A stretch of DNA of 64,000 bases from Amphiscolops sp. MND2022 (lineage: Eukaryota): the NCBI GenBank assembly GCA_964187785.1, contig OZ076413.1, positions 72,354,001 through 72,418,000 of the forward strand, written 5' to 3'. This document shows, piece by piece, positions 8,025 through 40,621 of the stretch. The first letter of the stretch is position 1, and each line of letters starts with the position of its first letter. The position numbers and the translations under genes are program-made. Below the pieces are notes generated by a model, which was given only the letters and a program-made list of their open reading frames with translations, had not been told where the DNA came from and made no database searches.

Positions 8025-8072
8025 ATGGAAAATTCATTGACCAAGATATAATCATGGAAAAATAACTATTAA

Positions 8073-8483: not shown

Positions 8484-8490
8484 ATAATAA

Positions 8491-8685
8491 ATGAAGAAAA
8501 TTAATAATTATTCAGCTCAATTTAAAATTATTCAAAAACCAATGAATACCAATGAGAATCAATTTGATGAGAAAATAATAGAAAAAAATACTCCAAAAAA
8601 TAATCAAAACAAACAATTATCAAAACAAAACCAAGAATTTATAAATAAGATATCCGCAAGTGGATTGAAACAATTTTTCTCTTAA
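8491..8685 (+). CDS. Small hypothetical viral protein (64 aa)
   Basis: Packed between protease and penton with 7-bp and 3-bp gaps, in the same orientation. Confidence 0.55.
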   Translation: MKKINNYSAQFKIIQKPMNTNENQFDEKIIEKNTPKNNQNKQLSKQNQEFINKISASGLKQFFS

Positions 8686-8688
8686 TAA

Positions 8689-9768: not shown

Positions 9769-9777
9769 TTCTATTAA

Positions 9778-10179: not shown

Positions 10180-10225
10180 TTTACAGCCGATCTGTAAATT
10201 AAATATTTTTTATGAATAATAAATT

Positions 10226-12128: not shown

Positions 12129-12271
12129 TCATTTAGTAAAAAATCACTAAATCACTAAGCAAATTCACTAAGAGCATGATGTTTTAAGTGTAACCTTATT
12201 TGCTTAGTGAAAAATATATGCTCTTAGTGAATTTGCTTAGTGATTTTTTACTAAGAAATCAGACCCATTTT

Positions 12272-13279: not shown

Positions 13280-13293
13280 TTATTAGGAAATAA

Positions 13294-14145: not shown

Positions 14146-14162
14146 TTATATTTAAATAAATA

Positions 14163-14906: not shown

Positions 14907-14963
14907 ATACTTGTAAAATTTGAACTAAATACTTTATAAAATTAAGTTTTTATTTAAAGTTAA

Positions 14964-15486
14964 ATGAGTGAAAAATTGTACCCATGTTTACAACAAGATC
15001 AGAATCTTGATCTTAGATTAAAAGAAATAAATAGTTTTTTAATAGTTCAATTCAAAATATAAATGATATTCAAAATTTTTATAATCATGAAGCTAAAAAG
15101 TATAAAAAGAAATCTAAAACATACAAGCTTATAAATTGTTTAATTCAATCTATTGATGGAGTTTCAGTACTAGCAGTATCATCAACATGTGTCACGTTGA
15201 GTGTCACAGGAGTTGGACTTGTTGTTGTACCTATAGCAAGTGTTATAGGTCAGGTTTATGTATAATCAGTAAAATTGCTGGAGAGTACCTGAAAAGAAAA
15301 GAACAACACAATATTAAAAAATATACTCTTGCTGGTAGAACACTACACGACTACCAAAAACTACATTCAAAATGTTTAGAAGACAATAAAATTGATCTGA
15401 ATGAATACAACAAATTAAAACAAACTTACGATGTGTATAAAAACAATAAAACTGAACTAAATTCTGAGTTTACTTTTTTAGGATAA
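14964..15486 (+). pseudogene. Putative membrane-associated viral protein, split by two 1-nt frameshifts
   Basis: Manual joining gives MSEKLYP...KEINSF / NSSIQN...YKLINCLIQSIDGVSVLAVSSTCVTLSVTGVGLVVVPIASVIG / SGLCIISKIAGEYL..., which contains a long Gly/Val hydrophobic hairpin. Confidence 0.65.
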
Positions 15487-15547
15487 ATTTATTCAGTAAA
15501 AATAAAATCAGTATAAAACTTAAATCCTAATTTTTATTCCTATTTAA

Positions 15548-16778
15548 ATGGAATTATTCTCATTGAAAAATAAATATGCTATGGATAAACCCTATTCATA
15601 AAATTGATTTTATTAAATACTCACCTAGTAGTTTAGCTACAATCAACCATAATAATTCAAATATTTCCATCATCTTCCCAAGAGAAGATGCATATATTTG
15701 TTTACAAAACTCATACGTATCATTAGAATTTGAAGTTCTTAAAAATGATGATACAAGATATGCAGATGGTGATCAAATAAGTTTGGTTAATTTTGGACCC
15801 GTTGCTTTATTTAGTGAAGCTAAGTTAACTACTAGTTCAGGTAAACATTTAGAAAAAGTTGATAATCTACACCCAATTTCATTGATGTATAAACTTTTAA
15901 CATCTAATCAACAAACAAGTCAATTGATGTACGGATTTGAAGAATCACAAGCAACTAGAAGACGAGAACTAACAACAAACAAAACAGAAAAAGGAACCTT
16001 TTTTGTTAGAATTAGGTTGAGTGATATATTTGGATTTGCTGATCAAGAAAAAACAACTTATGGATTGGGTTATACTCTTACTTTAAAACGAAATAATAAT
16101 AACGACCCCATTATAAGGGACAATGGTGTAGATGCTGCAAAAATAAATATAAAAGACATCTCCTGGCATATTCCACACTACACACCATCAATGGAAAACC
16201 AACAACTTGTGATGGATCAAATATTAGACAAAGATCCAACTGAACTGTATTATATTGAACGAGTTGTTTTTAGAAAAGATGTTAACACCAATAACAATTG
16301 GACATTTGAATTAGGTAATAGTGGCGAATCAACACCAACTTTTGTAATTGTTGGCTTTCAAGCTAGAAATGAAATTGATTCACAAACACATGATAATGCA
16401 ATATTTGATCGTTTACCTGTTTCAAATGCTGTTTGTAAAATAGGATCAGAGAAATATCCCGATGATGGAATAGAATGTGATTATGATAGAGACAAATATG
16501 ATCAAGCATACAGTGAAATTGAAAACTTCTATTTGTTAAAAAGTGAAACTAACCTACTCAATCCGTTTATTGATTTGCATAAATTCAGGACAAATTATAA
16601 TTTCTATGTATTTGATTTATCCAAACAAAAAGACCCCATCGGGAGTCAACCTATTAGATTAGAATTCAAATTTAATGCTGCCATTGATGTAGCAGACTAT
16701 ATAGCTTATGCCCTAGTCCTAACACCTAAATTGATAAGTATCAGTAGTGATGGACAAAGGCATTTTGATTTATTATGA
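15548..16778 (+). CDS. Major capsid protein (double jelly-roll, hexon-like)
   Basis: ~410 aa. The likely start ATG 15548 (MELFSLKNKYAMDK) is shifted by an extra C in aaaccct into IHKIDFIKYSP. C-terminus FYVFDLSKQKD...PIRLEFKF...YALVL. Confidence 0.82.
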
Positions 16779-16873
16779 ATAAATATAATTTAAATATATA
16801 ATAATACAGCTTTGCTGATATGATAAATAAATTTATTTTTATAAATAATAATTATAAAATAATATATTTATTT

Positions 16874-19800
16874 TTATAAAACATGTGCTCGATCACTTAT
16901 CAACTTCACAAGTTGTTGATGGGTGAGTGCTTGTTTCCAATACCAAACACTGAAATAAATTTCTTCATCTGTTTTCTTGCTACCGTCAACATTTATAGTT
17001 AAATCTTTATAATACAAACCAATTAATTTCAAACAATATATACAAGGGCAATCACCTTTTTGTGTGTGTTTATCCCATGGTAAACTTTGTATTGGATTTA
17101 TATACAAACGTTTATCGTCAAAAGGATTCAAACACAACTTAGGTTGTTTTTCAACTGTGAGGTTGTGTAAATTAGATCTAATTGATATATTTGTAGAACT
17201 TGATGTTTCTGAATTAAACAATGAATTTTGATATTCTTCACATTTGGGAGCTTTTTGTATTCCTTTTTGTTTCGCTTTTTGAATGTTATTATTAATATTA
17301 TTATAACTAAAAGAATATGACTTTGATCGCAATGCTGTGAAAGTATCTAACACCAAAACTGGACTTGTTTCATTTTTCATTTTTCCTATAACTTTTTTGT
17401 TAATAGGATCATATAATTCATCACTTGGGTGTAATTCACTGAAATCAAATTCATCTTTGTTTTCTTGTAAAAAGTTTATTAGTTCTTGGTGGTTTGTATC
17501 AAAACTCAGAATAAAACTATCAGTATCCATGTAGTGTAGTTGTATGGATTGTTTCCAATATGGTTGTAATTTGTTATAATAAAATTCATACATTAATAGT
17601 TTTGATAGTTCTAAAACTGTAAAACCCAAATAAATTGGTTTATCAAAGACTGTTTTTTCTTTATCAAACTTACACACTAAACTTAGAATAATGATCCATG
17701 ATTCCTTTGAAACTTAACTTGGATTGTCTTTTTATTATTTGATCTATTTGAGAATGATCAATGAATTCTAGATTGGTTCTATCTCTTACATTTTCCATAG
17801 TCTTCCCAAAGAAAGCATTATTCATTAATTTATAAAGATCCTTTTCAAAGTTTGTTTTCGCTACTGTGCGTTTCTGAGTATTATGATCGATATATTTACC
17901 TAACCATGGACTTTGTTTAAACTTATAGATAGTATGTATCTTCGTTACTTTCATCCCTTGGTTAAGATAAAACTTAAACATCCTATAATGTATCATATAT
18001 TTCGATTTATTGGTTACATCACACATAAGTTTTGATGTTGGTTTGTAATTAGGTTGATTTATATTATTCATATAACCTGAGAAAAAGTTTGGATCTGCTT
18101 TTGTTTGATACGGACAAAAAGGAAAGTTTTTTGTTTTTTCTTTAATTTCAGCTGGATATTCTAAATCACATTCTATAAAGAATCCATATTCATTATCATC
18201 AGGTATTTGTAATAACTCTTCTACTAATTGCTCTAGATTGTAATTATCTGTGTAATTACACGGATTAAGAGGTAATATTTCGAATTCGCCAGTAGGAAGA
18301 TATTGACTCATTGCCCATCCATATAGATTATTTGCATCGATATATAAGATTTGTTTATTTTCATCAGATTGCACGTGACGATCTCCCATTACACTTGAAA
18401 TTCCTCCACGGATATTATTTTCAAGTAGTAGTAATAATTCTTCACCGGAGGGCAGCTTCGCTGTATCTTTTATAAAGTCTAACTTTATATTAGTCAACTT
18501 CAATCCTGCTTTCCATGTATAACCAGGTAGACTATAAGAGTACAAAGGATTAATTTTATATTCTCGTGTAGAACTTTCCACAAAGTTTTCAAATACATCA
18601 GCTAATTGAAGAACATCCATTTTTAAGTATAACATTGTTAATTCTCTTCCACTTTCAATTTTATTTTTATCAAATAATTCTTGGGTTCTTTTTATATCAT
18701 CATCTGATGGATAAGATTGTGTTAATGTTGACCAATAATCTTCTTTAGTTAAATTTAATGGTTCCTGAAAGTTATCAAGATTTAAGCATTCATAAGGATA
18801 AGCCAATTTCTTTTTAAATATTTTGTCTTTAAATCCATTTTCATCCATTATTGGGAAACTGTCTAAACTCTTAACTAATTTATCTAAACTACTACTTAGA
18901 AAACGATATGAATCTAAGAATATTAAGCAACCTACTTGAATTGATACATAATTTTCCATTGACTTTGGGATTATTTTTGGTTCATACCCCTTTTCGAAAG
19001 CTTGTATTAAGAGTTCTTGAAATATAAGATGACAATCATACCCAGAAAAGTTATGGAAAAATATAGGAACAAAACTTGATGACTTTTGTTTTACATTTAT
19101 GTTACATATATTATGAGCTGCTCCTCTGTATTTTCCTGTTAGATGATCATGATCTCTAACCTTATCCTCTGTAAAAGGCTCTTCACAAAGCCAACACTCT
19201 TCTGCAAGTTTGAATGATTCTTCTTCTTCAGGAGTTATTTGTAATTCTAACTTTGTTTTAAAATATTCATTTGCTTCTAGTTCTAATTTTAACATTTCCT
19301 TCACAAACCATTCGTTACAATCTGTTCCAAAGTGTGAACTATACTTGTTTCCAAATGTTGAAATTACATAAAAGCCTACTGCAATTGGAATTTGTTTAAA
19401 TAATACTTTGGCATCATTTCCAGGTTGATTAATACATTCAAAATCTGCATATACTCTTATTGGTACAGGAACTTCCATATAATAATCTTCAAACTTTAAC
19501 TGATTCTTCCAACTGAATGTGATATTAGTTGGTTGTTGATTTATACATCTTTCCATATGATCAAGTAGAACCGGTTCTGAACTGAATGCTGTTAAACATC
19601 TTCTACACACCCATCGCATGTGTGAATCTTTATTTATTAAACAATGCAACTTTCTTATTAGACAATAGTGATTTTCATACAATAACAAATCTATTTGTGG
19701 TTGGAAGTAATTTTTGTTAATATGAATTGGTGTTAAAACTGCTCCGGTGAGTTCAAAAACATTTACGTTCAAGTTATTAAGTTTTTCGAACTTGGGAATG

Positions 19801-20696
19801 TCTTTAACTTTCATAGGGAATTCCAATCCTTTCAGGTTAAGTTTATTCATATGAATAACATATTTTGATGTTATATTTTTATTATCCTCAACTGGAAATA
19901 AATATGCTAATATACACCATACAAAACAAAATTGATCATTATTTTTTATATTTATAATTGACTGATTCGTTTTATATTTTGGTGGTAACTCAATATATGA
20001 AGATGCTCGAATATCATTAACTTTATATATTTCTAATATAACTTCTTCTATTTCTTGAAATTGAAAACCTGATCCTTCTAATTGTTCATCATCTAATTTC
20101 TGTATTAATGTGTTATGAGTATCTTGTTGTGTACCGAAGGTGCTTTGCATGTGATTATATATTAAATCTGATTTTATCCATCTTTTAAATACTTCTTCTT
20201 CTCCATTGATTATTTTTGAAAATTTAGCTAGATAACTCAATTGATATTTATATCGGGGAAAATAATTTTTACTAAGTAAGTCATTTATGTTATGTTTAAG
20301 ATTTTCAGTTGGATTTATTTTCAGTTTAATGTATGTGTTTTCATTCACAATTATATTTACTCCATTACCGGAGGGCAGCAAAGCTGTACCGAAATCTGTA
20401 ATACAGCTTCGCTGGCTTTGTATACTGTTTTGTTGACGGTTTTGTAAATGAATTTCACTTTGGAAATGTCTTGTTGTATCAGATATATATTTACTACAAT
20501 CTTCACATCATATTTTATTGATGCGGTTTTTATGTTCATCTGAATTTAAATGAGAACTTTTATCTGAGATAGGCATATATAAATTACATTTTTTACAATA
20601 ATATTGATTTAATTTTTCAAGATGTTTTACTGATTTTAGATGATCAGACTTGAAAGCTTTTTTATAATTTAAATTACAAATACTACAATTCTCCAT
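16874..20696 (-). CDS. polB: Protein-primed family B DNA polymerase (frameshifted), with N-terminal zinc fingers and an endonuclease-VII-like insert
   Basis: YADFEC (Exo I), FHNFSGYD (Exo II), YIDANNLYG (Pol A), KLMNNAFFGKT (Pol B), YMDTDS (Pol C). The CWLC...VRDHDHLTGKYRGAAHNICN insert is present. Frameshift at ~17675 and further shifts at 20380-20510. Confidence 0.93.
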
Positions 20697-20879
20697 TTCT
20701 ATTTATTAAAGAAAAAATAGTTTAATTAAAAATTTTTCAATTATAATTTTTATAAAAAATTGGTGAAAAATATTTTAATTTTGTGGTGGTAAGGTATTAA
20801 AGCTTGCCACAGATTTGTATGATAAATACAGCTTTGCTGGCATCGCATATTTCATTTAAGAAAATTTTTATAATCTGTA

Positions 20880-21290
20880 ATCAGAAACTCAAGACCTTTC
20901 CAATGATGTATCACACATGGCAATATCTTAAACTTTTATAATCTCTACATGTTTAAGGGTTTCAGGTTTGAGATGGTATAGTTTCAGTTGTGGGTACCCA
21001 ATCATGAAAATATTCAAAATCTGTGATCTCCAACTCAAGACCTTTCCAATGATGTATCATACACTGTGATATGTTGAACTTTTATAATCTCTACATGTTC
21101 AAGGGTTTCAGGTTTTTCGAAGTTTCAGATAGTATACATTTGTACTAGGTTTTCGAATTGTATCTAGATAGATAGCCCTTGTCGAGACCTTTTCAATGGT
21201 ATATTATACTTTGTTGTAACTCAAATATTCGTTGAGTTATGGCTTTTTTCCTGACCTATTAGTAATCTCTACATGTTTAAGAGTGAAAGT
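20880..21290 (+). repeat. Three degenerate ~150-bp direct repeats in the Polinton right subterminal region
   Basis: AAGACCTTTCCAATGATGTATCA and TAATCTCTACATGTT recur near 20890, 21037 and 21185. Confidence 0.75.
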
Positions 21291-21464
21291 CCGAATGGAA
21301 AAAGTCTCTTTGCCAGTTTCATTTCTTCGGCCATGCTGTTTGCTGTGACTGTAGAGAGAAAAGTGAAAAATGAAATTTTGGTGCATTCCGAATGCACCTC
21401 AAGCATTAGAGTGCACAGGCAAGCCTTATTTGCTCAAAGCGCAAGATAGTGCTTTCAATATCTC

Positions 21465-21812
21465 GGATTCCACGACCATACCTTTAACCGTGCAAAATTG
21501 GCAAATTACGTCATTTGTCCCGGATTCCACGGATTTAGTCGTGGATTCCAGTAACAAATGCTTAGCTGTACGAACTGTCGGCATGCAGCGGTGTCCCGGA
21601 TTCCACAAAAACGTAAGTTTTGCGAAATGAACCAATCAGATTGCAGAAATCATAAATTTCCTGGATTCCACGACCTTATGCTTGACGCGATACGCGGCAT
21701 CTCTTCTTGAATTAAATTCAACTGTCGTGGAATCCAAGACACGCTTAACATCAAAGAGAAGTTTTGTCCTGGATTCCACGACTTTTCTCAATTTTCGTGT
21801 CCCGGATTCCAC
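21465..21812. repeat. Array of eight GGATTCCA(C) motifs
   Basis: Copies at ~21465, 21522, 21543, 21598, 21663, 21727 (inverted), 21771 and 21804. Confidence 0.8.
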
Positions 21813-22154
21813 GAAAACAGCAAAATAGCTTGCCTGTGCACTGTAATGAGGTCAGACGACCATCTGGTGCGTGAAATTTTGTTTGAAATTTATATGGTGG
21901 TAATTTTTCCAACAGTTGTGGTGTCCACTTGTGCACACCATTGAATTTATCAATAATGAAAAATGTGTTCATCATTTTTATATGTAATTTTTCAATGGGT
22001 AAAAATGAAGAAAAAAACTCGTTTTCAATTTGGACACTTGTGTTTTCTACTTGAACGCATTTGGTAAGTATTCATTTTTTCTTCACGATGTGGTAATAAT
22101 TCTATTATACGTCGATGGAGGTTAGTTCAATTTTGGTTTGTGACAAATACTTCT

Positions 22155-22320
22155 TTGGAAAATTTGTGCATCGATTTTTATTTTGTTAAATTTTTAGTTG
22201 CGAAAAAAGGCTAGTTTTTAGATGGTTTGATTGGTATTTTGTGAAAAAAGATTAATTTTTTAATGATTTTACGAGCTTAAATTTTTTTTATATATTAGGA
22301 ACGGGAATTCGATTACTACT
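22155..22320 (-). repeat. Polinton right TIR
   Basis: Ends in GATTACTACT, followed immediately by the TSD ATCATA. Confidence 0.92.
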
Positions 22321-23900: not shown

Positions 23901-25752
23901 TTTTTTCTGCAACTGGAGTGTGCTTACTTTACTAGCAGCAAGCAGTGTTAACGAACCCTCAGCTTGAAATTTCAGAGCTGTTCATCTTTGGAAACGGTGA
24001 GCTATTCAGCCTGATCTTAGTCTCATTCTTTTCTCAATTTCAACAACAACTTGATCGACCGGAACCACCAAATTTCTCTCTTTTTGGAGACCACTCTTCT
24101 GAACAACACTTTTGGGCAGTTTCCGATTAACATTTCATTGAATGTCTCCATTAGTGTTGCGGTTCCTCGTCAAAAAATTTTGTCCAATAATTAGATCGCC
24201 AATCATCGCCTAAGGGCGGCTTTTCTCAAGACTGGGGTTGAATTGTGAACTTCTGATCTGAAACGACTGCTCCGGTTTCTCTTGCTAACAAATTTTTTCT
24301 TCGATGTACTCAATTAGTTTGAACACAAATTTTCAAAGACTGTGAATTTTCAAACAGTGACATGGAAATGATCATGCTATAGTTATATTTAAAATAGTTG
24401 AATACCAATTGAAGGCTTTTATTGTTTGTTGCTGATTTTTTGTGTAGATATTGATAAATGTTTACAGCTCAACATTGCCGAGCTCATCGTTTTTCATGAT
24501 ATTTTGTTAGTAAACACTAGTCTCGGGGTAGAGAGTCTCATAAATGAGAGCCTCGGAAAATGGTGAAAACGCCATGCAGCCAATTGCCTTTTAGTCTCGT
24601 TTTTCGGATCAGTCTCAAATTGTAAAGCAGTGACTATGGTGGGAATTTCTATCAAATGTATGCACGCCAATTAATTGCACAGGGGATGATATTCTTTGGC
24701 CTACCAACGTACCAATAAAATAGTGAAAGTATTCATTCGACTGTTAAGCTTACTGTAAGTATATTTCAATAAAAGCAAAACCCATGAAAGGTCGCATCGA
24801 GTCAAAAATGGCCGGCCGTGTACAGACAAAAGCGCCCGAATGCAAAACGTCTCAATACTTTTTGATTTGATTTCACAACCTCTAATTAATCGTAATTGAA
24901 GGTGTTCCAATACAAGATTAACTCACTGGTAATTCCAGATTTCACATTCTCGCACCTAACAAATGTCAATTGAAAATTACTTAAACTGCTAATTTTGGCA
25001 TTTCTGAACAAACTATATCAATTTTTTAATAAATAAATTTGTCAATAAACTGGTTTGAGATGAAATACTGATAATTATTTTATTGGAGCGAGGAACTTGA
25101 AATTGGTTTTGAAGAAGAGTCAACAAATCTTTTGTAGTCTTTGATTGGGGCGCTTTTGACTGCGTATTTTGGGCGCGTTTGTGTGGGGCGCCTTCGGACA
25201 GGGATAACAAATTCACGAAGATTACTACTGTAACAGTCGTCTTTTTAATATGTTCAATTTGTATCTCTTCGAATGCTAGGAGCGACTGTTAGGGAGTTAT
25301 TTGGTGCTACGTAATATTTTGAATATTTACTTTTTGGTCACTGTGTGGTACACCTTGAGTAAAGAAAAACTTTATTGCTTTTAGAAAAGAACTTTAATTA
25401 TTATATTTATCTTGATAGCAGATAGAATGAAAAACAACAAATAAATACAGTATAAATTACTAACATATTTTTGGGCAAAATGATGGATGAAAATCAGCAA
25501 CTGATCTGTATTAGAGAAAATTTGCTTACTGAGCAAATTAGGTAAGTTCTCGTTTATTGTAAAAAAAAACGAGACGAGGAGGGAAATGATGATTAATGTC
25601 TAGGTACCAGATGACAAAGACGTTTGGGAAATATGTTGAGTAATATCTCGGTTAACTGTTGAATCACTATGAGCGATTAAATGTATAAATGTATATACTA
25701 GAAGAAACAAACTAAAATGAAAACTGCAGGCATAAATTTAACAGCGCAGCTT

Positions 25753-25920
25753 AGCAACGGTGCATTGATGAAGCAAGATTGAGCAAAAATTTTACAACAT
25801 AGCAACGGCGCCTTGATAAAGCAAAAATGAGCAAAAATTTTAGAACATAGCAACAGCGCCTTGATAAAGCAAAAATGAGCAAAAATTTTACAACATAGCA
25901 ACGGCGCCTTGATAAAATAA
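25753..25920. repeat. 48-bp minisatellite (~3.5 copies)
   Basis: AGCAACGGCGCCTTGATAAAGCAAAAATGAGCAAAAATTTTACAACAT in tandem, with no spacers. Confidence 0.9.
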
Positions 25921-25954: not shown

Positions 25955-26199
25955 TAAGCTGTTTTGCAAAAGTGCCTAGTCATTTCCTGTCTTGTACGAG
26001 GAATGCTTTGTCATATTACTCCCGGAAATGTACGTTTGCGTCCCGCAAATGAGGATCACAGGTCCATGAGCTCATGGAGAGACTTCAGAAGGGGGTCGCA
26101 CCTGCGACACGTTCGTAGTCCTTGCTCTCGTCGGTGTACGCCGGCCAGGTCACAACAGCGATAGACTTCTAGTAGTTCGTGGGTAAGAAGAATACGTTT
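25955..26199 (-). repeat. 3' LTR (the part shared with the 5' copy)
   Basis: Matches 40377-40621 with 8 substitutions in 245 bp by manual comparison. Confidence 0.85.
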
Positions 26200-26411
26200 C
26201 GTTGGGTTACCAGGGGCAGGTATTTACTAAGTGCTTGTGGGACTGAGGGGTTTTTGTCAGGGTGTAGCAAGTGTAACAAGGACTTCACGTGGTCATTGAT
26301 GGTATCACTGGAAGCTGTAGGGAGACAATGAATGACGTCAAACAGTAGCTGCTTCGGGGCCATGAATTCATCAAGAATCAAGGGCATTTTCTTAAAATGG
26401 TAAAAAACCAT
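26056..26411 (-). CDS. J-domain (DnaJ/Hsp40-like) accessory protein with Cys-rich C-terminus, one frameshift near 26200
   Basis: LFDVIHCLPTASSDTINDHVKSLLHLLHPDKNPSVPQALSKYLPLVTQ / KRILLTHELLEVYRCCDLAG...TCRRCDPLL*. It has the HPD motif and J-domain helix spacing. Confidence 0.75.
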
Positions 26412-26416
26412 ATTCT

Positions 26417-26812
26417 TTAATGCGGGACAAATCGTTGTGTGGACGTAATATTTGTGAGGGCCGTTACGTCCTCAGACCATGAAAACGTTCGTTTTAAAAG
26501 TTCCTCGTTTACTTCATTGAGTGTATTGACACGGGCGCGAAGCGACTGTATTTGGTCTTTCAGGTCAGCGTTGAGCTGCTCGAGTGACTTGACGTCTTGT
26601 TGGCGAGAAGCGAGTTGTTCCTCCACGTCTTCCAGACGTTGACATAACTGGCGTGCAGATGTCATTTCGGCATGGACAACGTGAACATAATGGTCACCAT
26701 CTATTTGGCACTGGATCTCGAAGTCCTCAGTATCGGGGTGCACTCTAGAGGGCACGGGTTCACACAGGCAATTTTCGGTAGGTTTGTCCACTTGCGCCAC
26801 AGCATCAATCAT
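26417..26812 (-). CDS. Accessory ORF with leucine-zipper-like coiled coil (131 aa), intact only in unit 1
   Basis: Heptads LEDVEEQLASRQQDVKSLEQLNADLKDQIQSLRARVNTLNEVNEELL. Its start overlaps the upstream ORF stop (ATGA). Copies 2 and 3 carry a 5-nt deletion. Confidence 0.65.
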   Translation of the reverse strand: MIDAVAQVDKPTENCLCEPVPSRVHPDTEDFEIQCQIDGDHYVHVVHAEMTSARQLCQRLEDVEEQLASRQQDVKSLEQLNADLKDQIQSLRARVNTLNEVNEELLKRTFSWSEDVTALTNITSTQRFVPH

Positions 26813-27120
26813 GGCGGGCGCTGTTTGGGTGGGATTTTCATGGGTGGAAGGGGGCGGTAAGTGAATATCGGTGGTAGGCCTTGTGAAATTACGGCGGGAC
26901 GAATCCGCGTCCAGACGCTGAAGTACAGCGGTCCCGCTATGCGAGTTGACTCGCAGGACCCGGTAGTCGTCATCGTGGAGAATGCGGACCGTATCAAACC
27001 TGGTAATCTTGGATACACGGCCAGAACTCGTGTATACGGGAACTCCGGCAGGGCGCTTTGCAGGGAACCTGAAAAAAAATGGGCGTTATAACGTTCAAAG
27101 ATATAAAAATATAGAAACAT
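26809..27120 (-). CDS. Accessory ORF of unknown function (103 aa, Pro-rich C-terminus)
   Basis: Intact in unit 1, coupled to the next ORF by an ATGA overlap. A possible acceptor TTTTTTTCAG lies near its start. Confidence 0.5.
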   Translation of the reverse strand: MFLYFYIFERYNAHFFSGSLQSALPEFPYTRVLAVYPRLPGLIRSAFSTMTTTGSCESTRIAGPLYFSVWTRIRPAVISQGLPPIFTYRPLPPMKIPPKQRPP

Positions 27121-30100
27121 CCAGAATACCTTTACAATTTGAACTTAGGGCACGTAGTTACATTATTCTCAGGTGAAGTGCGATTTTCAATTGTTTTTTT
27201 TAAAATTACAATGGTGAGATGATGATCATTGAGGGGACACGCTAACGTGTACAAGTACAGGGTTCCAAAAAGGAACAGGTACAGTGATGTACCAGTGGGG
27301 GAACACGGAAACGTGCTAAAAGGGGTCCACTATTAAGCGGAACTAGTACGAAACGTACGTTAGAGAGGGGCACATAACATGCACTTGATGGGGCACAAAA
27401 ATGCGTTGATTATACAATGTAAGTAGAGGGCAAACACTTTGCAGTCTATGTAGTAGACTCTGTGTATAAGGGAGCGGTGATATCTGGATGAACACGTAGG
27501 GGGACAGGTGGTTGAGATCAAGAGGCATATTTTGAACGTCCGGATTGGTTTCATGGTTTTAGAGGCCAAAGGCTTAAGTGCCGTAAATTCACTGAGGTTC
27601 AGTTCGAGAAATGCTGACGCGTCGTCAGTGGCCGTTGATGTGGAAAGATTATGTGAAGAAAACGTCCTGTCGAGGTTTTGAAGAATTTGTGGGGGTGTAA
27701 AAACAACGTTTTCCATTGACGACGGAAAAGAGTGAAACTGATAGTAAAAGTCAACAACGAAAGGGTTATGGACACAGTAGAGAAAAGTACGGCTCTACGG
27801 AAGGGCAAGTAAGAAGCAAGAGCTTTCGAAGTTGCTGGTGGGACGGAGGAATAATATTCGGCAATCGGTCGTGTCAACTTGTCAACGGATTCCGTGGACA
27901 TCCGTTGCACATCGGGTAATTTCGCCAACTCCATGCGGACGCTGTTTAAAATGGACTGGCGGGCTTCACCAACTGAGTAAACCGGGAATAAATGATTGAC
28001 AGTAGGCACACGACGGAAAATTTGTTCTAACGATGGCGTTAGGGCAACAGTAGCATAACAGGGGTCTGGATTGGATTCGCAGAAATCCATGTCAGGGGCT
28101 AGAACCAGGTCGCCTTGATTCAGCGAGAGAACGCTGGAACAGCTCGGACGAATAACACAAGCCTGACAGTGAATGGTGGAAACAGACACGCCGTGCTGAC
28201 GGCTGTCATTCTTGATCCTTAAAAAGGGGTCGCGCGATATGACATGGTAGAGGCCATCTGCCAGGTAGAAGGCTTGAGGGGCTTGAGGGAAGTAACACAG
28301 ACTTCACCAGACAGTTTGGCAAAGCAGGGATGTCATGATTATATAGGAGGGAGCCCAAACACAGGAGTGTTTCATCGGTCGTTGTTGAGAACCCTTTGAG
28401 ACACAATTTGATCCGGTTATTGTGTATGTAACAATGACTTCACGTGGTCATTGATGGTATCACTGGAAGCTGTAGGGAGACAATGAATGACGTCAAACAG
28501 TAGCTGCTTCGGGGCCATGAATTCATCAAGAATCAAGGGCATTTTCTCGAAATGGTAAAAAACCATATTCTTTAATGCGGGACAAATCGTTGTGTGGACG
28601 TAATATTTGTGAGGGCCGTTACGTCCTCAGACCATGAAAACGTTCGTTTTAAAAGTTCCTCGTTTACTTCATTGAGTGTATTGAGACGGGCGCGAAGCGA
28701 CTGTATTTGGTCTTTCAGGTCAGCGTTGAGCTGCTCGAGTGACTTGACGTCTTGTTGGCGAGAAGCGAGTTGTTCCTCCACGTCTTCCAGACGTTGACAT
28801 AACTGGCGTGCAGATGTCATTTCGGACAACGTGAACATAATGGTCACCATCTATTTGGCACTGGATCTCGAAGTCCTCAGTATCGGGGTGCACTCTAGGG
28901 GGCACGGGTTCACACAGGCAATTTTCGGTAGGTTCGTCCACTTGCGCCACAGCATCAATCATGGCGGGCGCTGTTTGGGTGGGATTTTCATGGGTGGAAG
29001 GGGGCGGTAAGTGGATATCGGTGGTAGGCCTTGTGAAATTACGGCGGGACGAATCCGCGTCCAGACGCTGAAGTACAGCGGTCCCGCTAGGCGAGTTGAC
29101 TCGCAGGACCCAGTAGTCGTCATCGTGGAGAATGCGGACCGTATCAAACCTGGTAATCTTGGATACACGGCCAGAACTCGTGTATACGGGAACTCCGGCA
29201 GGGCGCTTTGCAGGAAACCTGAAAAAAATGGGCGTTATAACGTTCAAAGATATAAAAATATAGAAACATCCAGAATACCTTTACAATTTGAACTTAGGGC
29301 ACGTAGTTACATTATTCTCAAGTGAAGTGCGATTTTCAATTTTTTAAATTACAATGGTGAGATGATGATCATTGAGGGGACACGCCAACGTGTACAAGTA
29401 CAGGGTTCCAAAAAGGAACAGGTACAGTGATGTACCAGTGGGGGAACACGGAAACGTGCTAAAAGGGGTCCACTATTAAGCGGAACTAGTACGAAACGTA
29501 CGTTAGAGAGGGGCACATAACATGCACTTGATGGGGCACAAAAATGCGTTGATTATACAATGTAAGTAGAGGGCAAACACTTTGCAGTCTATGTAGTAGA
29601 CTCTGTGTATAAGGGAGCGGTGATATCTGGATAAACACGTAGGGGGACAGGTGGTTGAGATCAAGAGGCATATTTTGAACGTCCGGATTGATGTTTCATG
29701 GTTTTAGAGGCCAAAGGCTTAAGTGCCGTAAATTCACTGAGGTTCAGTTCGAGAAATGCTGACGCGTCGTCAGTGGCCGTTGATGTGGAAAGATTATGTG
29801 AAGAAAACGTCCTGTCGAGGTTTTGAAGAATTTGTGGGGGTGTAAAAACAACGTTTTCCATTGACGACGGAAAAGAGTGAAACTGATAGTAAAAGTCAAC
29901 AACGAAAGGGTTATGGACACAGTAGAGAAAAGTACGGCTCTACGGAAGGGCAAGTAAGAAGCAAGAGCTTTCGAAGTTGCTGGTGGGATGGAGGAATAAT
30001 ATTCGGCAATCGGTCGTGTCAACTTGTCAACGGATTCGGTGGACATCCGTTGCACATCGGGTAATTTCGCCAACTCCATGCGGACGCTGTTTAAAATGGA

Positions 30101-31789
30101 CTGGCGGGCTTCACCAACTGAGTAAACCGGGAATAAATGATTGACAGTAGGCACACGACGGAAAATTTGTTCTAACGATGGCGTTAGGGCAACAGTAGCA
30201 TAACAGGGGTCTGGATTGGATTCGCAGAAATCCATGTCAGGGGCTAGAACCAGGTCGCCTTGATTCAGCGAGAGAACGCTGGAACAGCTCGGACGAATAA
30301 CACAAGCCTGACAGTGAATGGTGGAAACAGACACGCCGTGCTGACGGCTGTCATTCTTGATCCTTAAAAAGGGGTCGCGCGATATGACATGGTAGAGGCC
30401 ATCTGCCAGGTAGAAGGCTTGAGGGGCTTGAGGGAAGTAACACAGACTTCACCAGACAGTTTGGCAAAGCAGGGATGTCATGATTATATAGGAGGGAGCC
30501 CAAACACAGGAGTGTTTCATCGGTCGTTGTTGAGAACCCTTTGAGACACAATTTGATCCGGTTATTGTGTATGTAACAAGGACTTCACGTGGTCATTGAT
30601 GGTATCACTGGAAGCTGTAGGGAGACAATGAATGACGTCAAACAGTAGCTGCTTCGGGGCCATGAATTCATCAAGAATCAAGGGCATTTTCTTGAAATGG
30701 TAAAAAACCATATTCTTTAATGCGGGACAAATCGTTGTGTGGACGTAATATTTGTGAGGGCCGTTACGTCCTCAGACCATGAAAACGTTCGTTTTAAAAG
30801 TTCCTCGTTTACTTCATTGAGTGTATTGAGACGGGCGCGAAGCGACTGTATTTGGTCTTTCAGGTCAGCGTTGAGCTGCTCGAGTGACTTGACGTCTTGT
30901 TGGCGAGAAGCGAGTTGTTCCTCCACGTCTTCCAGACGTTGACATAACTGGCGTGCAGATGTCATTTCGGACAACGTGAACATAATGGTCACCATCTATT
31001 TGGCACTGGATCTCGAAGTCCTCAGTATCGGGGTGCACTCTAGAGGGCACGGGTTCACACAGGCAATTTTCGGTAGGTTCGTCCACTTGCGCCACAGCAT
31101 CAATCATGGCGGGCGCTGTTTGGGTGGGATTTTCATGGGTGGAAGGGGGCGGTAAGTGGATATCGGTGGTAGGCCTTGTGAAATTACGGCGGGACGAATC
31201 CGCGTCCAGACGCTGAAGTACAGCGGTCCCGCTAGGCGAGTTGACTCGCAGGACCCGGTAGTCGTCATCGTGGAGAATGCGGACCGTATCAAACCTGGTA
31301 ATCTTGGATACACGGCCAGAACTCCGGCAGGGCGCTTTGCAGGAAGCCTGAAAAAAATGGGCGTTATAACGTTCAAAGATATAAAAATATAGAAACATCC
31401 AGAATACCTTTACAATTTGAACTTAGGGCACGTAGTTACATTATTCTCAAGTGAAGTGCGATTTTCAATTTTTTTAATTACAATGGTGAGATGATGATCA
31501 TTGAGGGGACACGCTAACGTGTACAAGTACAGGGTTCCAAAAAGGAACAGGTACAGTGATGTACCAGTGGGGGAACACGGAAACGTGCTAAAAGGGGTCC
31601 ACTATTAAGCGGAACTAGTACGAAACGTACGTTAGAGAGGGGCACATAACATGCACTTGATGGGGCACAAAAATGCGTTGATTATACAATGTAAGTAGAG
31701 GGCAAACACTTTGCAGTCTATGTAGTAGACTCTGTGTATAAGGGAGCGGTGATATCTGGATAAACACGTAGGGGGACAGGTGGTTGAGA

Positions 31790-34021
31790 TCAAGAGGCAT
31801 ATTTTGAACGTCCGGATTGATGTTTCATGGTTTTAGAGGCCAAAGGCTTAAGTGCCGTAAATTCACTGAGGTTCAGTTCGAGAAATGCTGACGCGTCGTC
31901 AGTGGCCGTTGATGTGGAAAGATTATGTGAAGAAAACGTCCTGTCGAGGTTTTGAAGAATTTGTGGGGGTGTAAAAACAACGTTTTCCATTGACGACGGA
32001 AAAGAGTGAAACTGATAGTAAAAGTCAACAACGAAAGGGTTATGGACACAGTAGAGAAAAGTACGGCTCTACGGAAGGGCAAGTAAGAAGCAAGAGCTTT
32101 CGAAGTTGCTGGTGGGATGGAGGAATAATATTCGGCAATCGGTCGTGTCAACTTGTCAACGGATTCGGTGGACATCCGTTGCACATCGGGTAATTTCGCC
32201 AACTCCATGCGGACGCTGTTTAAAATGGACTGGCGGGCTTCACCAACTGAGTAAACCGGGAATAAATGATTGACAGTAGGCACACGACGGAAAATTTGTT
32301 CTAACGATGGCGTTAGGGCAACAGTAGCATAACAGGGGTCTGGATTGGATTCGCAGAAATCCATGTCAGGGGCTAGAACCAGGTCGCCTTGATTCAGCGA
32401 GAGAACGCTGGAACAGCTCGGACGAATAACACAAGCCTGACAGTGAATGGTGGAAACAGACACGCCGTGCTGACGGCTGTCATTCTTGATCCTTAAAAAG
32501 GGGTCGCGCGATATGACATGGTAGAGGCCATCTGCCAGGTAGAAGGCTTGAGGGGCTTGAGGGAAGTAACACAGACTTCACCAGACAGTTTCGCAAAGCA
32601 GGGATTTCATGATTCTATAGGGGGGAGCCCAAACACAGGAGTGTTTCATCGGTCGTTGTTGAGAACCCTTTGAGACACAATTTGATCCGGTTATTACCTG
32701 AACATTGTTGGAGGGTGGAACTGTCCAGTTCAGCATAGCGTGTGTTATCAGTGGAAACAGCGAGGAACGGCTTCGAAAAGGTAAAGATGGAAGCAGTTTT
32801 GTTATCTCCGTTTGGTTGGTACAATGGTATTGCCTTGTAGATAGCGAATGTGGACGATCGAGAGTTCATTGGAATTCCCAAGACTACTGAAATACCACTC
32901 GGGATTAGGGCAATCTCTAAAACCAACTGAATTTCATAGTAGATAGCTTCAGGTCCAGGCTGTATAGCCGGTGACAGTTTGGTGCCGCGGCGGACTTCAT
33001 CCTCGGATAAATCTTTTACAATGGCAGCTATTTCGGCGGGGAGGAGGAATTGCGGCGTGATGTGACCACCGGCGAGAGAAGAAATTGTCGAGAATAAGTT
33101 GATTTTGTACGCGTAAAAAGCAGCACGGTATGCCTTGATGTTGGTATACAGCGATCCCAAGTCCGATACGAGGCTTCTTATGTCCTGATGGAACATAAAA
33201 TGTTGCGCCGGTGTCATAAGACATGCTTTGTACTGAATCAGTTGTCCTTTTATATGGTTGATCCGATCGGTTAAATTGTGAAGATGCTTGCTCACCGCAT
33301 CTCGAATTGTTTTCTTGTGTTTTCTTCACTTCATTTCCCAGCAGAAAGAAGTTCTCATCGTTGCGTGATTGCACACGACGTAGTGTTTCGATCGTGGCCT
33401 TTTTGTGTGCCAAAAGGTGTTCCACATCCCTAGCGGGGGCACTTATCATCACAGAGACTGAAAATTGATAGGGCCGTACATGCGGCATCCTTCACGGGGT
33501 CACCAAGATTTAGACCCGCACCTGCTGCAACAGCGCCAACAAAACGCCGATTCCGTGTCATGTGTTCCGGGCCCCTTTGATAAAATTTAGGGAGGAACGA
33601 TTGGGTTATATCGGACAATTCTAATTGTTCCTTCGTAGCTTCTCTAATTTACGTTTGTATAACAGTGATCCGCTTAGACAACTGTTCCAATAACAGACCA
33701 TAAATCTCGTTTATATTCGAGAATTTACACTACTTTTGTTGGTACATACCGCCAATACCAACAACACGATGCCTTGCTGCCAGTAACAGCTGTTTGGCAT
33801 CCGTGAGATTCACTTCTGGGAGCTTTGGGAAAGGTATAAAGACGCGAACTTTACTCTCACTCTCTGAGGTCACTGCCTGGTGTTTGAAGAGAAAGGATGC
33901 ACCTTTCTTGAAGACAGGGATTGGGGGTGCATCATTGACGTGGGTCGAGAAGTGGGTTACGGGGGTGCAGGCTGGAAGGTCGTAGAGCAGAAAGAAGGAT
34001 AGCAACGCTCGAAAGTCGATC
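31790..34021 (-). pseudogene. env: Envelope class I fusion glycoprotein (baculovirus F/errantivirus type), frameshifted
   Basis: Signal-like LLSFFLLY, furin site RNRR|FVGAVAAGAGL (33544/33543), heptad region, SL..GHITPQFLLP, Cys-rich domain, and C-terminal TM AVLFSTVSITLSLLTFTISFTLF. Confidence 0.85.
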
Positions 34022-34258: not shown

Positions 34259-37200
34259 TCACGGAACCAAGCTTGTGATCGGGCCGGGGATAGTGATATG
34301 ACTCCGGGGAGGACACTGGGATTCTTCCGGAGACTCCATGGGTCGAGGTCCACTAGGGGGTGTTAGTGAACAACGATGCAGTGGTCCCATTGGCGTGCCG
34401 TTGTTCGAGGGTACTGGTCGTGTCGACGACGGGGTGAGTGGTGATGAGCTTGAGGGAGCGGAGAAGGGTAAGGTAGGAGTTGATGCTACACCGGAACTGG
34501 GTCCACCTGACGACGGATAGCTGGCCGCCGGATGGTGCAACGAGGCAGTGTAGTGTTCACAGCCTTGATCGTGGTCTATTGTAGGCGGATTCTGAGTCGG
34601 AGGGGATTCCGCCCCGAGAAATGGTGTGTTTAGGTGACTTACGTTGCGTGTTGGAACGTTAGAGGTAGGTGGAGGTTCACGGAATAGTTTGAGGCGATCA
34701 TAATGAACGACAAGTCCTTTCATGGTTTTCAACTCCTGTATTTTGAATGTGATGTCGTCAATACGCTTCAAAATGTTATATGGGCCTCGCCAAGGACTGA
34801 AGGTTTTCGGAGATTTCCCTGGAAGGACAACAGGATTGTGCAGTGGAACTTTTTGACCTTCATTGTACAGAGGACTGTGCACCTTCCGGTTATAAATGGC
34901 ATTTCGACGTTTTTGATTGGAATTTAATGCGGTACGAGCTAGATCGTAAACTTTCAGGAAGGCTTGCTGTCTTTCATAGACGTAATTGTGATGGCTATCG
35001 GATCGATTGATGGCTATCGTTGGTTTTTCGATAAAGGTAGAGGTCCCATGAAATCGATACCGATGTGATGGAAGGGATAGCTGGCATGCCATTCGATCAA
35101 GGAATGTCGATGGTGTTTCGGAGGGTGATTACGTTTTTGACATTGTTCACATCGACTAACGAACAAACGAACGTCATCTTGGAATCCTGGCCAATAAAAG
35201 CGTTGACGAACTTTTTCAGTGACTTTAAAGCTACCCAGATGACCTCCGGTTGAAGAAGAGTGTAACGAAGTGAGAAGTGATTGGACCATAGAGACATGTA
35301 TCAATTGTTGCAAGACGTGCATGTTGGTTTTGAGTGTGAATTGACGACACAAAATGTTATTAGAAAGCACCAAACTTTCAAACCCATTCGCCAACTGCCA
35401 GAGCTTCCGCGGTTGTCCCTGGAGTTCGGAATTGCCAGGGGGCTTCCCGCGCGATACACAAGTTATCAAAAGCTTCAAATGCGGGTCTTCGCGCTGAGCT
35501 CGTTCTAAGTCAGTCAAGGAATGTTGCTCGTTCAACATCTTTTTTCCCTTGAGTGTTGTATCTGAATTATCAGAAGTGCCCGTCACATTTGAAGCTTGAG
35601 TTTGCATTTCGTTCTGTTGGGAGTCCAGCAAGAAAACAATGATCTGGATTGTTGAGGATCGAAAAACATCGTTGATGATGGCCTTCAGTTTGTTCCAATC
35701 AAGCCTGTCTAACCCACAACCTACACGGGGAAGACTAATATTTGTTATCCCATTTGTCTCTGCATGACTTCTCAATGCTTCGAGTGAAGTCCGTAGAGCT
35801 GTGTAGGTCGGTTTATGGTAGTAGCGAGCTTTTGTGATCAAATGGTAAACGAAACGACCGGGATCAGAGACCCATTGAGGCTATAAGACCATTTTGTCTA
35901 TTGCTTCTTTGTCAGGATACGTTGAAGGAAACGTTTGAAGTCAGCGGAGATACAGTGGGCTATTGAGTCCTTGCTTTGCAGGATGTCACCATAAACCTCA
36001 TTGTACTCGCAACTCCGTGCTGCTTTCGGCTGTGGTCGGTTAGGCCACTCTGAGTCGTTGTCGACTTCCACTGAACACTTTTTGAGCTTGAGGAGATGGC
36101 TTTTAGGCCTCTAAGAGGAGTCCTTGAAAGACCGTCCGCATGGCCAATTGTGTTTCCGCGGCGATGAATTACCTCATAGTTGAATGCTGCCAACTTTTCG
36201 AGCCAACGAGCTGTGAGAGAATCAGGGTCTTTAAAGTTATGGAGCCACTGTAAGGCTCGATGGTCAGTCACAATGAGAAAGTTTTGTCCCAGAAGATAGT
36301 GTTAAGTGGCGGGTAAAATGAACAACTGCCAAAAGTTCCCTTTTTGTGGCTGAGTATCTGGTTTGGGCCTTCGTGAGGGCTTTCGATGCGTAACAGATGG
36401 CCCGTTCTAGACCGTTCTGAACTAGGGCCAATACAGCTCCCATAGCTGTCAAACTCGCGTCCGTATACAGAATAAAGGGCTCCTTCATCGGAGGAAAAAC
36501 CAATATAGGTGTTGAAGTGAGTTTGTGTTTTGAAGCGTCAAAAGACTCTTGAGCTTCAGGAGTCCACTGGAATTCGGTCGCTGAGTCACTTCCTGCGTGA
36601 ATTGGTCTGGCAATCGCGGCGAAGTCCTTCTCGTACCGTCTATAGTAGGAGCAAAGTCCCAAGAAGGACTTGACTTTTGTGGGGTTATTAGGAACTGGAA
36701 AGGCTTTGACTGCTCTCACCTTGACCGGGTCAGCCTCGAGGCCATCTTTGCTGATGATGTGTCCGAGGAACGGAACACGAGTTCGGAAAAACTCACATTT
36801 GGTGGGGTTAATCTTTAAATTAGCGTTGCGAAACCGTTCCAAGACTGCTCTGAGGCGTTCAAGGTGCTCTTCAGCAGTTCGGGCAAAAATGATGCAGTCA
36901 TCTAAATAAGGGACTGTAATCTTCCAGGTGAGACCAATAAGGACACATTCCAATAAACTCTGGAATGTATTGGGGCTGCCGGTAAGTCCCATCGGCATCC
37001 GAAGCCATTTGTAGGATCCGAACGGTGTGCTGAAAGCAGTTAAATCTTGGCTTTGGACATCCATCGGTAACTGGTAGAAACCCCACGAAATGTCAATCGT
37101 CGTGAATAAACTACTTCCTTCTAAGGTATCGAAGATTTCTTCGATCGAAGGAATCGGCCAACAGGACTTGATTGTCTGATTATTTAGTTGTCGGTAGTCA

Positions 37201-38350
37201 ATCACCAGCCGGAGCTTGCCATTTTTCTTTGGAACAAGCATGGCGGGAGCGCTGTACGGGCTATGGCACGGGGTGATGAGCTCCTTTTCTAGGAAAGCGT
37301 CGATTTTTTTCGTAAGTCCTGTTTCAAATGAAGCGGCATTCTGCGATTTGGAAGTTTAATCGGACGAGACCCAGGATAGACATCTATTTTATGTGACGTA
37401 ACATCACACTTGCCAATATCCCCTTCGTTCTTTGAGAAAACATCCGAAAGTTCATCGATCAGTGCGCTGAATTGTGACTTGATTGGGGCATAAAGTTCGT
37501 GATCAATGGATCCCTTCACTAAATTTAGGTCGTATTTTTCATCAACCATATCCGTCATTTTCGTGTCATTTGCGAATCCCGTTTGGGCAGTTCCAATGTT
37601 CTGTATACGCTCCCTGGAAATAACTTCTGAACTTCCAAGTGTTGTATGTTTATGAACTGTAATAGGCGAGTCCCCAGAATTCTCGATAACAAGCGGGATA
37701 GTATCCTCCGTTAGTGTGAACAACATGTCCGGTGCTGTTAAATCTTTGCCATTGAACTTCTGATGAGGTTCAAACGATCCTACTAGCTCAACTGGGGATC
37801 GCTTCCAGTCAGGGATACAATCTGGGACGATCATTGAATGTCCTGCCGGAATACTGACTGTATGCCGTGCGATTACGCGGAATACTTGATCAAATGGGAT
37901 TTTGAATGTTTTGTGGTATAATGGTACCGATGAACCATGGGCAATCTGGAGCGTTTTCTTCGAGAACAAGGGATCACATTTATGATCTTCTAAAAAGTCC
38001 AGTCCAATTAGTCAATCTGCTTCCGATTTTGCCAAACCGTGAATTTGGTGATGGAAAATCTTTGAACCTATTTGGACAGGTAGGATTACGGTGCCACGGG
38101 TGTCTATAGGTAGTTGGTTAGCGGTTTTCAGGTGTGTGGTCGACGGGGTTAGTTGAAGTGCTCTTTGGGTCTGTAGGATGTCGAAAGTTTCGCTGCTAAG
38201 ACAAGAGACACTTGCTTCACTATCGCACACTGCTTCTATGGGGTGATCGAAAATGTGTAATTTCACAAAAACACTTCGATGGTCGACCACAGAGTTTAAC
38301 GTTTGCGTTGGTGGGTCTTTTGAAGTACCGTTGTCTGCTCGTCGACCCAT
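34259..38350 (-). pseudogene. pol: pol: protease, RT, RNase H, macrodomain, integrase (catalytic core deleted)
   Basis: PR VCDSEAS; RT LVIDYR, TAFST, MPMGL, YLDD; RH LYTDAS, RELLAV, TDHRAL; IN H..GHLG..RFYWPG..C..C and IDFMGPL. Several frameshifts. Confidence 0.92.
35630..36000 (-). CDS. TARG1/OARD1-like macrodomain inside pol
   Basis: GDIL..KDSIAHCISADFK...YHLITKARYYHKPTY..L..SLEAL.SH...NGITNISLPRVGCGLDRLDW closely follows TARG1 motifs (SLAHCIS, LITK, PRIGCGLDRL). Confidence 0.88.
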
Positions 38351-39590
38351 GGGCGTAGACGATTTCAGTTGAAAATTTCGGCGTTTTGACTACAGTCACT
38401 CGGCCACATTTGAAGCATGCTTTACATTTCTTTGAGTCATGGTTCGTTCTTTTACAGTGTTTGCATGGGGCTCTGGTGTCAACATTTCGGCCATTCGAGC
38501 GGTTTCCCGCACCATTCTGAGTGTGTCGTTTGTGATTTTGGTTTTTATGGTAGTTGTTAGTCTTCTTGTTCTCAAATCGACAAGCTCGACCTCTTTGGGA
38601 GTCAGTACTGCTCGCGCGCGACGCCGACTCGTGATTGGGAGTAGCACTTCGCTGCCGATTGTTTCTCTGCTCCGGTTTTGGCAATGCATTTCGAATGCCT
38701 TCAGTCAGGGTGCTGACCAAATCCTCCATGATTTGATGATTGGGCTGTTCAGGATGCTCACGGGAAATCCTGTTTACACTGCTTCAGCCGTAGTGTGACT
38801 AGAGGAGGGAGCGCATTTCTCGATTTCGAGAAACGAATTCAGCTCCATGGCTAAGGCCAAAGCATCGTCTGCAGTGACTGGTTTCGACTTGCGCAGCTCC
38901 CAGCGAAGGGTGGAATCACTCGAACCTTCGATGAAGCTGGTCAAAACAATTTGTTCGATTAGGTGGGGAAAGGCGCGATAAGCGCGACGCGCTAGAGTGC
39001 GAATGTCGCAAAGGAAGGCCGAAATATCTTGATTCGGTTGCTGGCGGGCTGCTTTCAATCGAGCTTTAAGGATATCGACGTTGGTAGTGTAATTTTACCG
39101 GAAGGCATCAACCAGCATAGTGAAATCAGTTTGTTGCGCGGCTGACACCGTAGTGTAAAAGTGCAACGCGTTGGCACGCAGACGAAGAGCAAAATAGTGA
39201 GGCCGATTATCGTGGGTAGTCGAATACCACCCAGAGAGTAATGCGGCTGTATTGAATTGCTGTAAATAGTCTTCAAGTCGCCTAAACCTGTGAAGCTTTC
39301 CGGCATCAAGCAAGAATGAAGGGGAGTTACGTAGGGCGTGCCACCCTGACCTAACGGGGTCGGGAAGGGTGTAACCGGTGTCACTCCCGGCGCTGTAGAC
39401 GAAGTGCTCGCAGTTGAAGAGGATGCCGTAGTCATAACAGGGGTGCTAGCTGAGCTAGAGGTAGTTGTTCACGTAGCAGGAGTGCTGGGGGTGGCTGCGG
39501 TTGGGCCACTGGCAGTAGCTGTGGTCGTAGTGGCCGCTGTTGGGCTGGTTGACAAGTTTTATTCGATTTTTTTTTCTGAAATTATGCACT
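38351..39590 (-). pseudogene. gag: gag (Thr/Ser-rich N-terminus, capsid domain, two zinc knuckles)
   Basis: PESFTG..D.EDYLQQF..AALLSGW, F..LR..AL..Y, F.EG...LRWEL and CKHCKRTNHDSKKCKACFKCGR. Frameshifted. Confidence 0.85.
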
Positions 39591-40376: not shown

Positions 40377-40621
40377 TAAGCTGTTTTGCAAAAGTGCCTA
40401 GTCATTTCCTGTCTTGTACGAGGATTGCTTTGTCATATTACTCCCGGAAATGTAGGTTTGCGTCCCGCAAATGAGGATCACAGGTCGATGAGCTCATGGA
40501 GAGACTTCAGAAGGGGGTCGCACCTGCGACACGTTCGTAGTCCTTGCTCTCGTCGGTGTACTCCGGCCAAGTCACAACAGCGATAGACTTCCAGTAGTTC
40601 GTGGTTAAGTAGAATACGTTT
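40377..40621 (-). repeat. 5' LTR (apparently truncated at its outer end)
   Basis: Direct repeat of 25955-26199. No TG start, and flanked by scrambled filler sequence. Confidence 0.8.

Follow-up and report, generated by a model that had tools for sequence, protein, structure and literature searches.

A macrodomain inside the polymerase gene of a retroelement raises the question of what an enzyme that removes ADP-ribose could be doing there. Such a domain was found on the minus strand (35632-36005) of the window, the whole stretch of 64,000 nucleotides of Amphiscolops sp. MND2022 DNA analysed here, where it is flanked by the RNase H and the integrase of a Ty3/Gypsy element that has an env. An initial annotation had described it as a TARG1/OARD1-like ADP-ribose eraser in exactly this position, and that description is borne out by sequence comparison, by the fold predicted for a relative, and by the place of the domain in Pol.

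The macrodomain and the element that carries it

Three motifs had been singled out in the initial annotation. All are present on the minus strand, divided over two frames: SIAHCISAD (35940-35966) has a frame of its own while LITKARYYHKPTY (35803-35841) and LPRVGCGLDRLDW (35695-35733) share the other. The N-terminal piece of the domain (35934..36005) contains the first strand, a GD motif, and the AHC-S loop 1, and terminates at a deletion with a frameshift. The C-terminal piece (35632..35931) is interrupted by an in-frame stop at 35881-35883. When its stop-free part, the C-terminal half of the domain (35620-35880, 87 aa), was compared with five human TARG1/OARD1 chains, an E value of 5.9e-26 was obtained, with 41 out of 78 residues identical as counted by eye on the match line. 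The best match to a macrodomain other than TARG1 reached E 0.011 only. According to the part of the literature on TARG1 that was accessible, K84 is the nucleophile and D125 the resolving residue of the human enzyme (PMC6397177). The LITK lysine and the GLD aspartate, claimed earlier to be retained catalytic residues, align with K84 and D125, and the spacing is 41 residues in both proteins. In the same accessible text, a TARG1 pattern is given, TKx(30,35)Px[IL]GxGxD (PMC6397177); the window copy has a Val at the [IL] position and falls outside its strict form. The score of the Pfam Macro profile, 16.7 bits, does not reach the cut-off of 22, so that routine Pfam annotation overlooks the domain. 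Membership of the DarG family was rejected, as NCBIfam model NF048014 yields 40 bits (E 2.8e-10) on the 87-aa half against a curated cut-off of 250.

The glycine-rich loop that follows loop 1 is deleted from the window copy. It had been noted before that a MGAGIA segment was lost after SADFK; this loss is real, but the damage is worse than described, as approximately 11 residues are absent relative to the closest relative, P0001, the frame changes at 35934/35931, and the above-mentioned stop lies inside the macrodomain. Compared with its natural relatives, the Pol of the window copy falls apart into six blocks; the frame changes five times, and in-frame stops occur at two places. Approximately 160 residues of the catalytic core of the integrase are absent (residues 695 to 855 of P0163 are skipped). 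The window copy is a decayed pseudogene, unable to make the enzyme, a point that the initial annotation did not mention. Sequencing error as the source of the breaks was rejected in view of the large deletions and the long open frames in neighbouring elements (1177 aa, 60469-63999). An adaptive loss of the loop was rejected as well, the copy being dead throughout and the loop loss being one among many lesions.

The element is approximately 14.7 kb long and carries, in this order, a gag-like region, protease, reverse transcriptase (RT), RNase H, the macrodomain, integrase, and an F-type env. Its Pol order of protease, RT, RNase H, and integrase between LTRs is that of Ty3/Gypsy. Both LTRs and all genes lie on the minus strand. 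The 5′ LTR (40377..40621) is a matched block of 245 nt of which the ends are not sharp, and a TGG-initiated, primer-binding-site-like tract comes next in the sense of the element. It is matched to the 3′ LTR (25955..26199), with 8 differences over the 245 nt. A 48-nt tandem unit, present in three copies (25752-25916), adjoins the 3′ LTR. The gag-like region (38396..39445) has several broken frames and was assigned by position; Cys/His knuckle-like motifs were seen by eye, and a Pfam scan of three pieces gave no match. The aspartic protease (38012..38272) was recognized by Pfam (gag-asp_proteas, E 0.0091) and by tblastn to P0159. RT and RNase H (36122..37328) match RVT_1 (E 8.3e-32) and RT_RNaseH_2 (E 1.3e-25), with a frame change near 36302. 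RNase H, with its ADGLSR sequence at 36122-36139, lies upstream of the macrodomain. The N-terminal helical region of the integrase and its H2C2 zinc finger (35029..35523; Integrase_H2C2, E 3.4e-19) lie downstream, in the frame of the C-terminal half of the macrodomain. The C-terminal part of the integrase (34550..34990; Integrase_p58_C, E 4e-9) comes next, the missing core belonging between 35029 and 34990.

The F-type env (31873..33985) also has broken frames. Its Baculo_F match (E 2.6e-6, on 32618-33325) is above the cut-off, and an ORF within it (33430-33648) has, by eye, a basic cleavage site and a fusion-peptide-like stretch. In the operational sense of a Gypsy element with env, here an F- or gB-type env after pol, the element is an errantivirus, an assignment that refers to the window copy only. 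Three tandem copies, approximately 98 % alike, of a 2.14-kb 3′ segment occupy 26272..32695 (unstranded) and comprise the C-terminus of env and downstream ORFs. The downstream ORFs in this triplicated segment are unassigned, and one of them has a coiled-coil-like stretch.

Other elements are present in the window. A Maverick/Polinton-like element of approximately 14.5 kb (7852-22318; approximately 27 % GC) is bordered by terminal inverted repeats of 174 nt that are 92 % identical. It specifies a double-jelly-roll capsid (E 5.8e-20), an rve integrase (E 4e-14), an A32-like ATPase (E 1e-5), and a long ORF (16874-20507) that is polymerase-like by eye. A BEL/Pao element on the plus strand (59961-63999) has a DUF1759 gag piece and an open Pol frame, the one of 1177 aa referred to above, with a Peptidase_A17 match (E 2.1e-38). 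BEL/Pao elements are not known outside animals, and an animal host is deduced from this element.

Relatives of the element and the fold of the domain

Protein searches revealed seven Pol proteins of the family with the macrodomain, 57-90 % identical to their queries, two of which represent clusters of 83 and 19 members. In P0163, RT, RNase H, the macrodomain, and a whole integrase are contained in one ORF. The stretch from the end of RNase H to the start of the integrase is spanned by 13 of the 38 family proteins examined, and an in-frame macrodomain is present in all 13; 12 of these were flagged by the pattern while the thirteenth, P0006, was missed by it yet has the domain. As the initial matches had been chosen by the domain, a fairer count is that of cluster members. 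Among the 29 listed, both markers are spanned by 6, and the domain is present in 6 of 6.

The similarity to human TARG1 extends to these relatives (E 3.7e-29 for P0014). Of 27 family domains, 25 have the catalytic Lys and likewise 25 the catalytic Asp, the other two being truncated before the latter residue. The glycine-rich loop is present in relatives, with the second Gly found in 22 and the next Ala in 25 of the 27 domains. The strict published pattern is matched by 13 of the 27, or by 16 when Val is allowed, many of these domains being from decayed copies. Most family members scanned are, like the window copy, under the Pfam Macro cut-off. The segment between the two halves of the active site aligns with gaps to human TARG1, from which it has diverged, and this could alter the substrate.

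Between subfamilies, the macrodomain is well retained, being 63 % (P0001) and 54 % (P0006) identical to that of P0163, whereas the values for the linkers flanking it are 33 % and 19 %, and 28 % and 13 %. RT, RNase H, and the integrase core are 63-82 % identical to those of P0163 where covered, and the N-terminal region of the integrase is 55 % identical in P0006. In six diverged members of the clade, identity per column follows how conserved that column is in 93 other TARG1-like domains (138 columns, Spearman 0.61, p 3e-15); mean identity is 0.71 at 35 conserved columns versus 0.28 at 54 variable ones. On these protein-level comparisons, the domain almost certainly belongs to the TARG1 class and has been kept by selection.

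In an AlphaFold2 model of P0003, a natural relative, residues 211-350 form a domain of high confidence (block pLDDT 82-98) with disordered, low-confidence linkers on either side. In a Foldseek comparison of this model with the PDB, the top eight matches were all TARG1 (best E 5.2e-13, target TM 0.86-0.87), and DarG (0.76), the VEEV macrodomain (0.70), and Poa1p (0.62) ranked lower. The model confirms the assignment but is not independent evidence, since TARG1-like rows were part of its alignment and structures of TARG1 are publicly available. Both by sequence and by fold, TARG1 is a better match than DarG, Poa1p, or MacroD. A profile or structure search for a macrodomain and a check of other copies of the family had been set beforehand as tests that could overturn the assignment; TARG1 came out of the searches by sequence and with Foldseek, and the domain was found in the relatives.

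The element domain resembles human TARG1/OARD1 (C6orf130; PDB 4J5R/4J5S/2L8R) in its fold, loop motifs, and K84 and D125 equivalents. The human protein is free-standing and cellular, whereas the element domain is fused inside Pol, has a diverged mid-domain and, in the window copy, is broken. The macrodomain of bacterial DarG is described, in the part of the source that was accessible, as a related one of the ALC1 type with an equivalent catalytic Lys (PMC8501950). It differs in being only 18 % identical and in ranking below TARG1 in the fold comparison with the P0003 model; moreover, no DarT partner was seen in the element.

TARG1-like domains in other lineages

At E<=0.001, a search for TARG1-like domains gave 2528 representatives. 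In the top-ranking 150, four have LTR-type Pol domains according to Pfam (P0014, P0041, P0070, and P0096) and one has a non-LTR endonuclease. P0096, P0188, and P0189 are of a Gypsy lineage of which the RT is 45-46 % identical to that of the family. They carry the TARG1-like domain after the integrase and, in the case of P0188, two such domains in tandem, both fitting the TARG1 pattern. The domain follows a retro-type protease in P0041, of which P0016 is a close relative, and in P0008. It is located after RNase H, at the end of the protein, in P0070 and after a stretch that by eye is integrase-tail-like in P0097. Repositioning of the domain within Pol has taken place repeatedly. Quick trees, for which a set of 30 rows was picked by hand, group the family with P0016 and P0041 in one clade (SH-aLRT 99), with P0070 and P0096 falling elsewhere. 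The presence of P0016 and P0041 inside the family clade suggests that the domain moved within elements. Repeated capture of a TARG1-like domain by Gypsy lineages is suggested; a single origin was not rejected when tested (p-AU 0.135).

Scans of metagenome and viral contigs gave six and four loci, respectively. Upon tblastn with two Pol proteins of the family, nine of the ten distinct identifiers matched only around the macrodomain and L010 did not match; as the matches are confined to the macrodomain region, none of those loci is a copy of the element. A search of the ESM Atlas gave two low-score integrase clusters only (0.75). On a metagenome contig of 30 % GC, two kinds of ADP-ribose eraser lie next to each other, possibly in a viral context: a free-standing TARG1-like gene (L002:2354-3665) adjoins an NADAR gene (E 1.5e-46), with Thg1 nearby. 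Another free-standing TARG1-like gene, of 145 aa (L008:5794-6231), is located amid small phage-like ORFs on an IMG/VR contig.

Possible role of the domain in Pol

The explanation preferred here, at a probability of about 0.5, is that the domain is a predicted ADP-ribosyl hydrolase that is delivered with Pol and acts on proteins or DNA of the element. The initial annotation had inferred a virion-packaged counter-defence against host ADP-ribosylation of retroelement proteins or cDNA, an interpretation supported in part, namely as to the TARG1 class, the retained catalytic residues, the position in Pol, and the presence in other family copies. An ancestor of the Ty3/Gypsy family captured a complete TARG1-class macrodomain, and this became an in-frame, fixed part of Pol, with RNase H on one side and integrase on the other. 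Gypsy Pol domains are packaged and are cut by the protease of the element; in intact members, the macrodomain would be made with Pol and would enter the particle together with RT and integrase. It may stay on the N-terminus of the integrase, as a protease-site-like hydrophobic stretch follows RNase H in the relatives while, by eye, no conserved counterpart precedes the integrase. If the domain acts as TARG1 does, the K84 equivalent would attack and the D125 equivalent would resolve, taking ADP-ribose off acidic residues or DNA. Host ADP-ribosyl transferases could then not block reverse transcription or integration. A TARG1 K84A mutant is reported to fail to rescue DarT toxicity (PMC8501950). 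Intact copies probably encode an active hydrolase, as predicted from their sequences; the chances that its putative role is to undo host ADP-ribosylation of element proteins or DNA are roughly even. Most Gypsy elements are not known to have a macrodomain, so the domain is not essential.

An identical anatomy would be expected of an active hydrolase that assists repair, clearing cDNA ends or integration gaps of the ADP-ribose attached there by the usual DNA-damage PARPs, so that integration is completed. TARG1 has a part in DNA repair and can act on ADP-ribose linked to DNA, as stated in the accessible portions of three papers (PMC4695847, PMC8501950, PMC11102865). A host copy could serve this purpose, since the host-type enzyme is widespread (the 2528 representatives at E<=0.001), and the patchy, repeated presence of the domain across lineages looks more like gain driven by conflict; assistance in repair is considered fairly unlikely. 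The domain might instead mainly bind ADP-ribosylated chromatin and steer the integrase like the chromodomains of chromoviruses, catalysis being incidental. Gypsy elements with C-terminal chromodomains have been described, in the part of that source that was covered (10.1101/2021.11.30.470311), and the macrodomain occupies that very position, at the C-terminus of the integrase, in P0096, P0188 (twice), and P0189, and adjoins the integrase in the family studied here. It also occurs away from the integrase, after the protease in P0041 and P0008 or after RNase H at the protein end in P0070, and its catalytic Lys and Asp are near-invariant. As these residues also line the binding pocket, conservation cannot separate an enzyme from a reader; steering of the integrase is nonetheless regarded as unlikely.

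Retroelements often capture host sequence, and the loss of the loop from the window copy would suit a neutral passenger, a fragment of host mRNA acquired by recombination and tolerated in the linker between RT and integrase. That loss is one lesion among many in a dead copy, however, and the whole-domain boundaries, the open frame in all spanning relatives, the identity far above that of the linkers, and the TARG1-shaped constraint make a passenger very improbable. An assembly error, or a single element copy with a host TARG1 gene inside it, might be thought of because breaks abound in the window copy and a segment of it is triplicated. The fusion is present on many separate contigs, with RT, RNase H, macrodomain, and integrase in one ORF in P0163, and the long open frames in neighbouring elements, such as that of the BEL/Pao element, show that sequence error is not high; an artefact can practically be dismissed. 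The Pol-delivered hydrolase is favoured over a repair helper, a chromatin reader, and a passenger.

Element-borne macrodomains have precedent, but the literature searched appears to contain no description of this enzyme class, of its in-frame placement, or of its recurrence. Teleost epsilon-like endogenous retroviruses, also retro-transcribing elements, sometimes carry additional ORFs for macro domain proteins, according to the accessible text of a paper citing Basta et al. 2009 (PMC4977317). These are extra ORFs of Retroviridae, unlike the in-frame Pol domain of Ty3/Gypsy described here. Errantiviruses with an F-type env (PMC13524379) share with the element the gag-pol-env order between LTRs, the type of env, and an extra module in the bridge between RNase H and integrase. 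As far as the source was accessible, their bridge modules are 'mini' and 'pseudo-RNase H' domains, next to unnamed 'outlier' bridge domains; the main text has 0 matches for 'macro' and the searchable cells of the supplement contain no macrodomain, the full Pol sequences being only partly searchable. No such fusion is present in the parts covered of four further sources (PMC9040795, PMC2774666, 10.1101/2021.11.30.470311, and 10.64898/2026.07.25.740670). In a full-text literature search, with most subscription papers and the repeat databases outside its scope, no description of a TARG1-class domain in Gypsy Pol was found. Databases such as Repbase, Dfam, and GyDB, as well as CDD, may already mark some Gypsy-type ORFs as having macro/A1pp domains, in which case the fusion would be less novel.

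In the literature consulted, the nearest link between ADP-ribosylation by the host and retroelements is the SIRT6-mediated modification of KAP1 in L1 silencing (PMC4695847). A functional analogy exists with the macrodomains of RNA viruses (alphavirus nsP3 and coronavirus Mac1), which are ADP-ribose erasers embedded in polyproteins. They are of another subclass: in the comparison with the P0003 model, the macrodomain of VEEV comes in 42nd place, with an identity of 15 %. The nsP3 and Mac1 macrodomains counter host PARPs, and viral ADP-ribose erasers are a mark of host ADP-ribosylation defences.

In conclusion, the TARG1-class macrodomain of this Gypsy Pol is, judged at the level of sequence, a real capture that is shared across the family and kept by selection, seen here in a dead copy. 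Surveys of elements can miss the domain because, in most family members scanned, it stays below the Pfam Macro threshold, a blind spot in annotation. As a small and soluble domain, it offers a handle for finding the substrate, be it protein or DNA. It is conceivable, though doubtful, that ADP-ribosylation forms an unrecognised layer of restriction against LTR retroelements in invertebrates, answered several times independently by Ty3/Gypsy elements through capture of TARG1 at different points of Pol (after the protease, after RNase H, before or after the integrase, and in duplicate). This would be the retroelement counterpart of the macrodomains of RNA viruses, drawn from a different enzyme class. 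The recurrence in distant lineages of a TARG1-class domain under selection in Gypsy Pol hints that, in invertebrates, ADP-ribosylation puts reverse transcription or integration under pressure.
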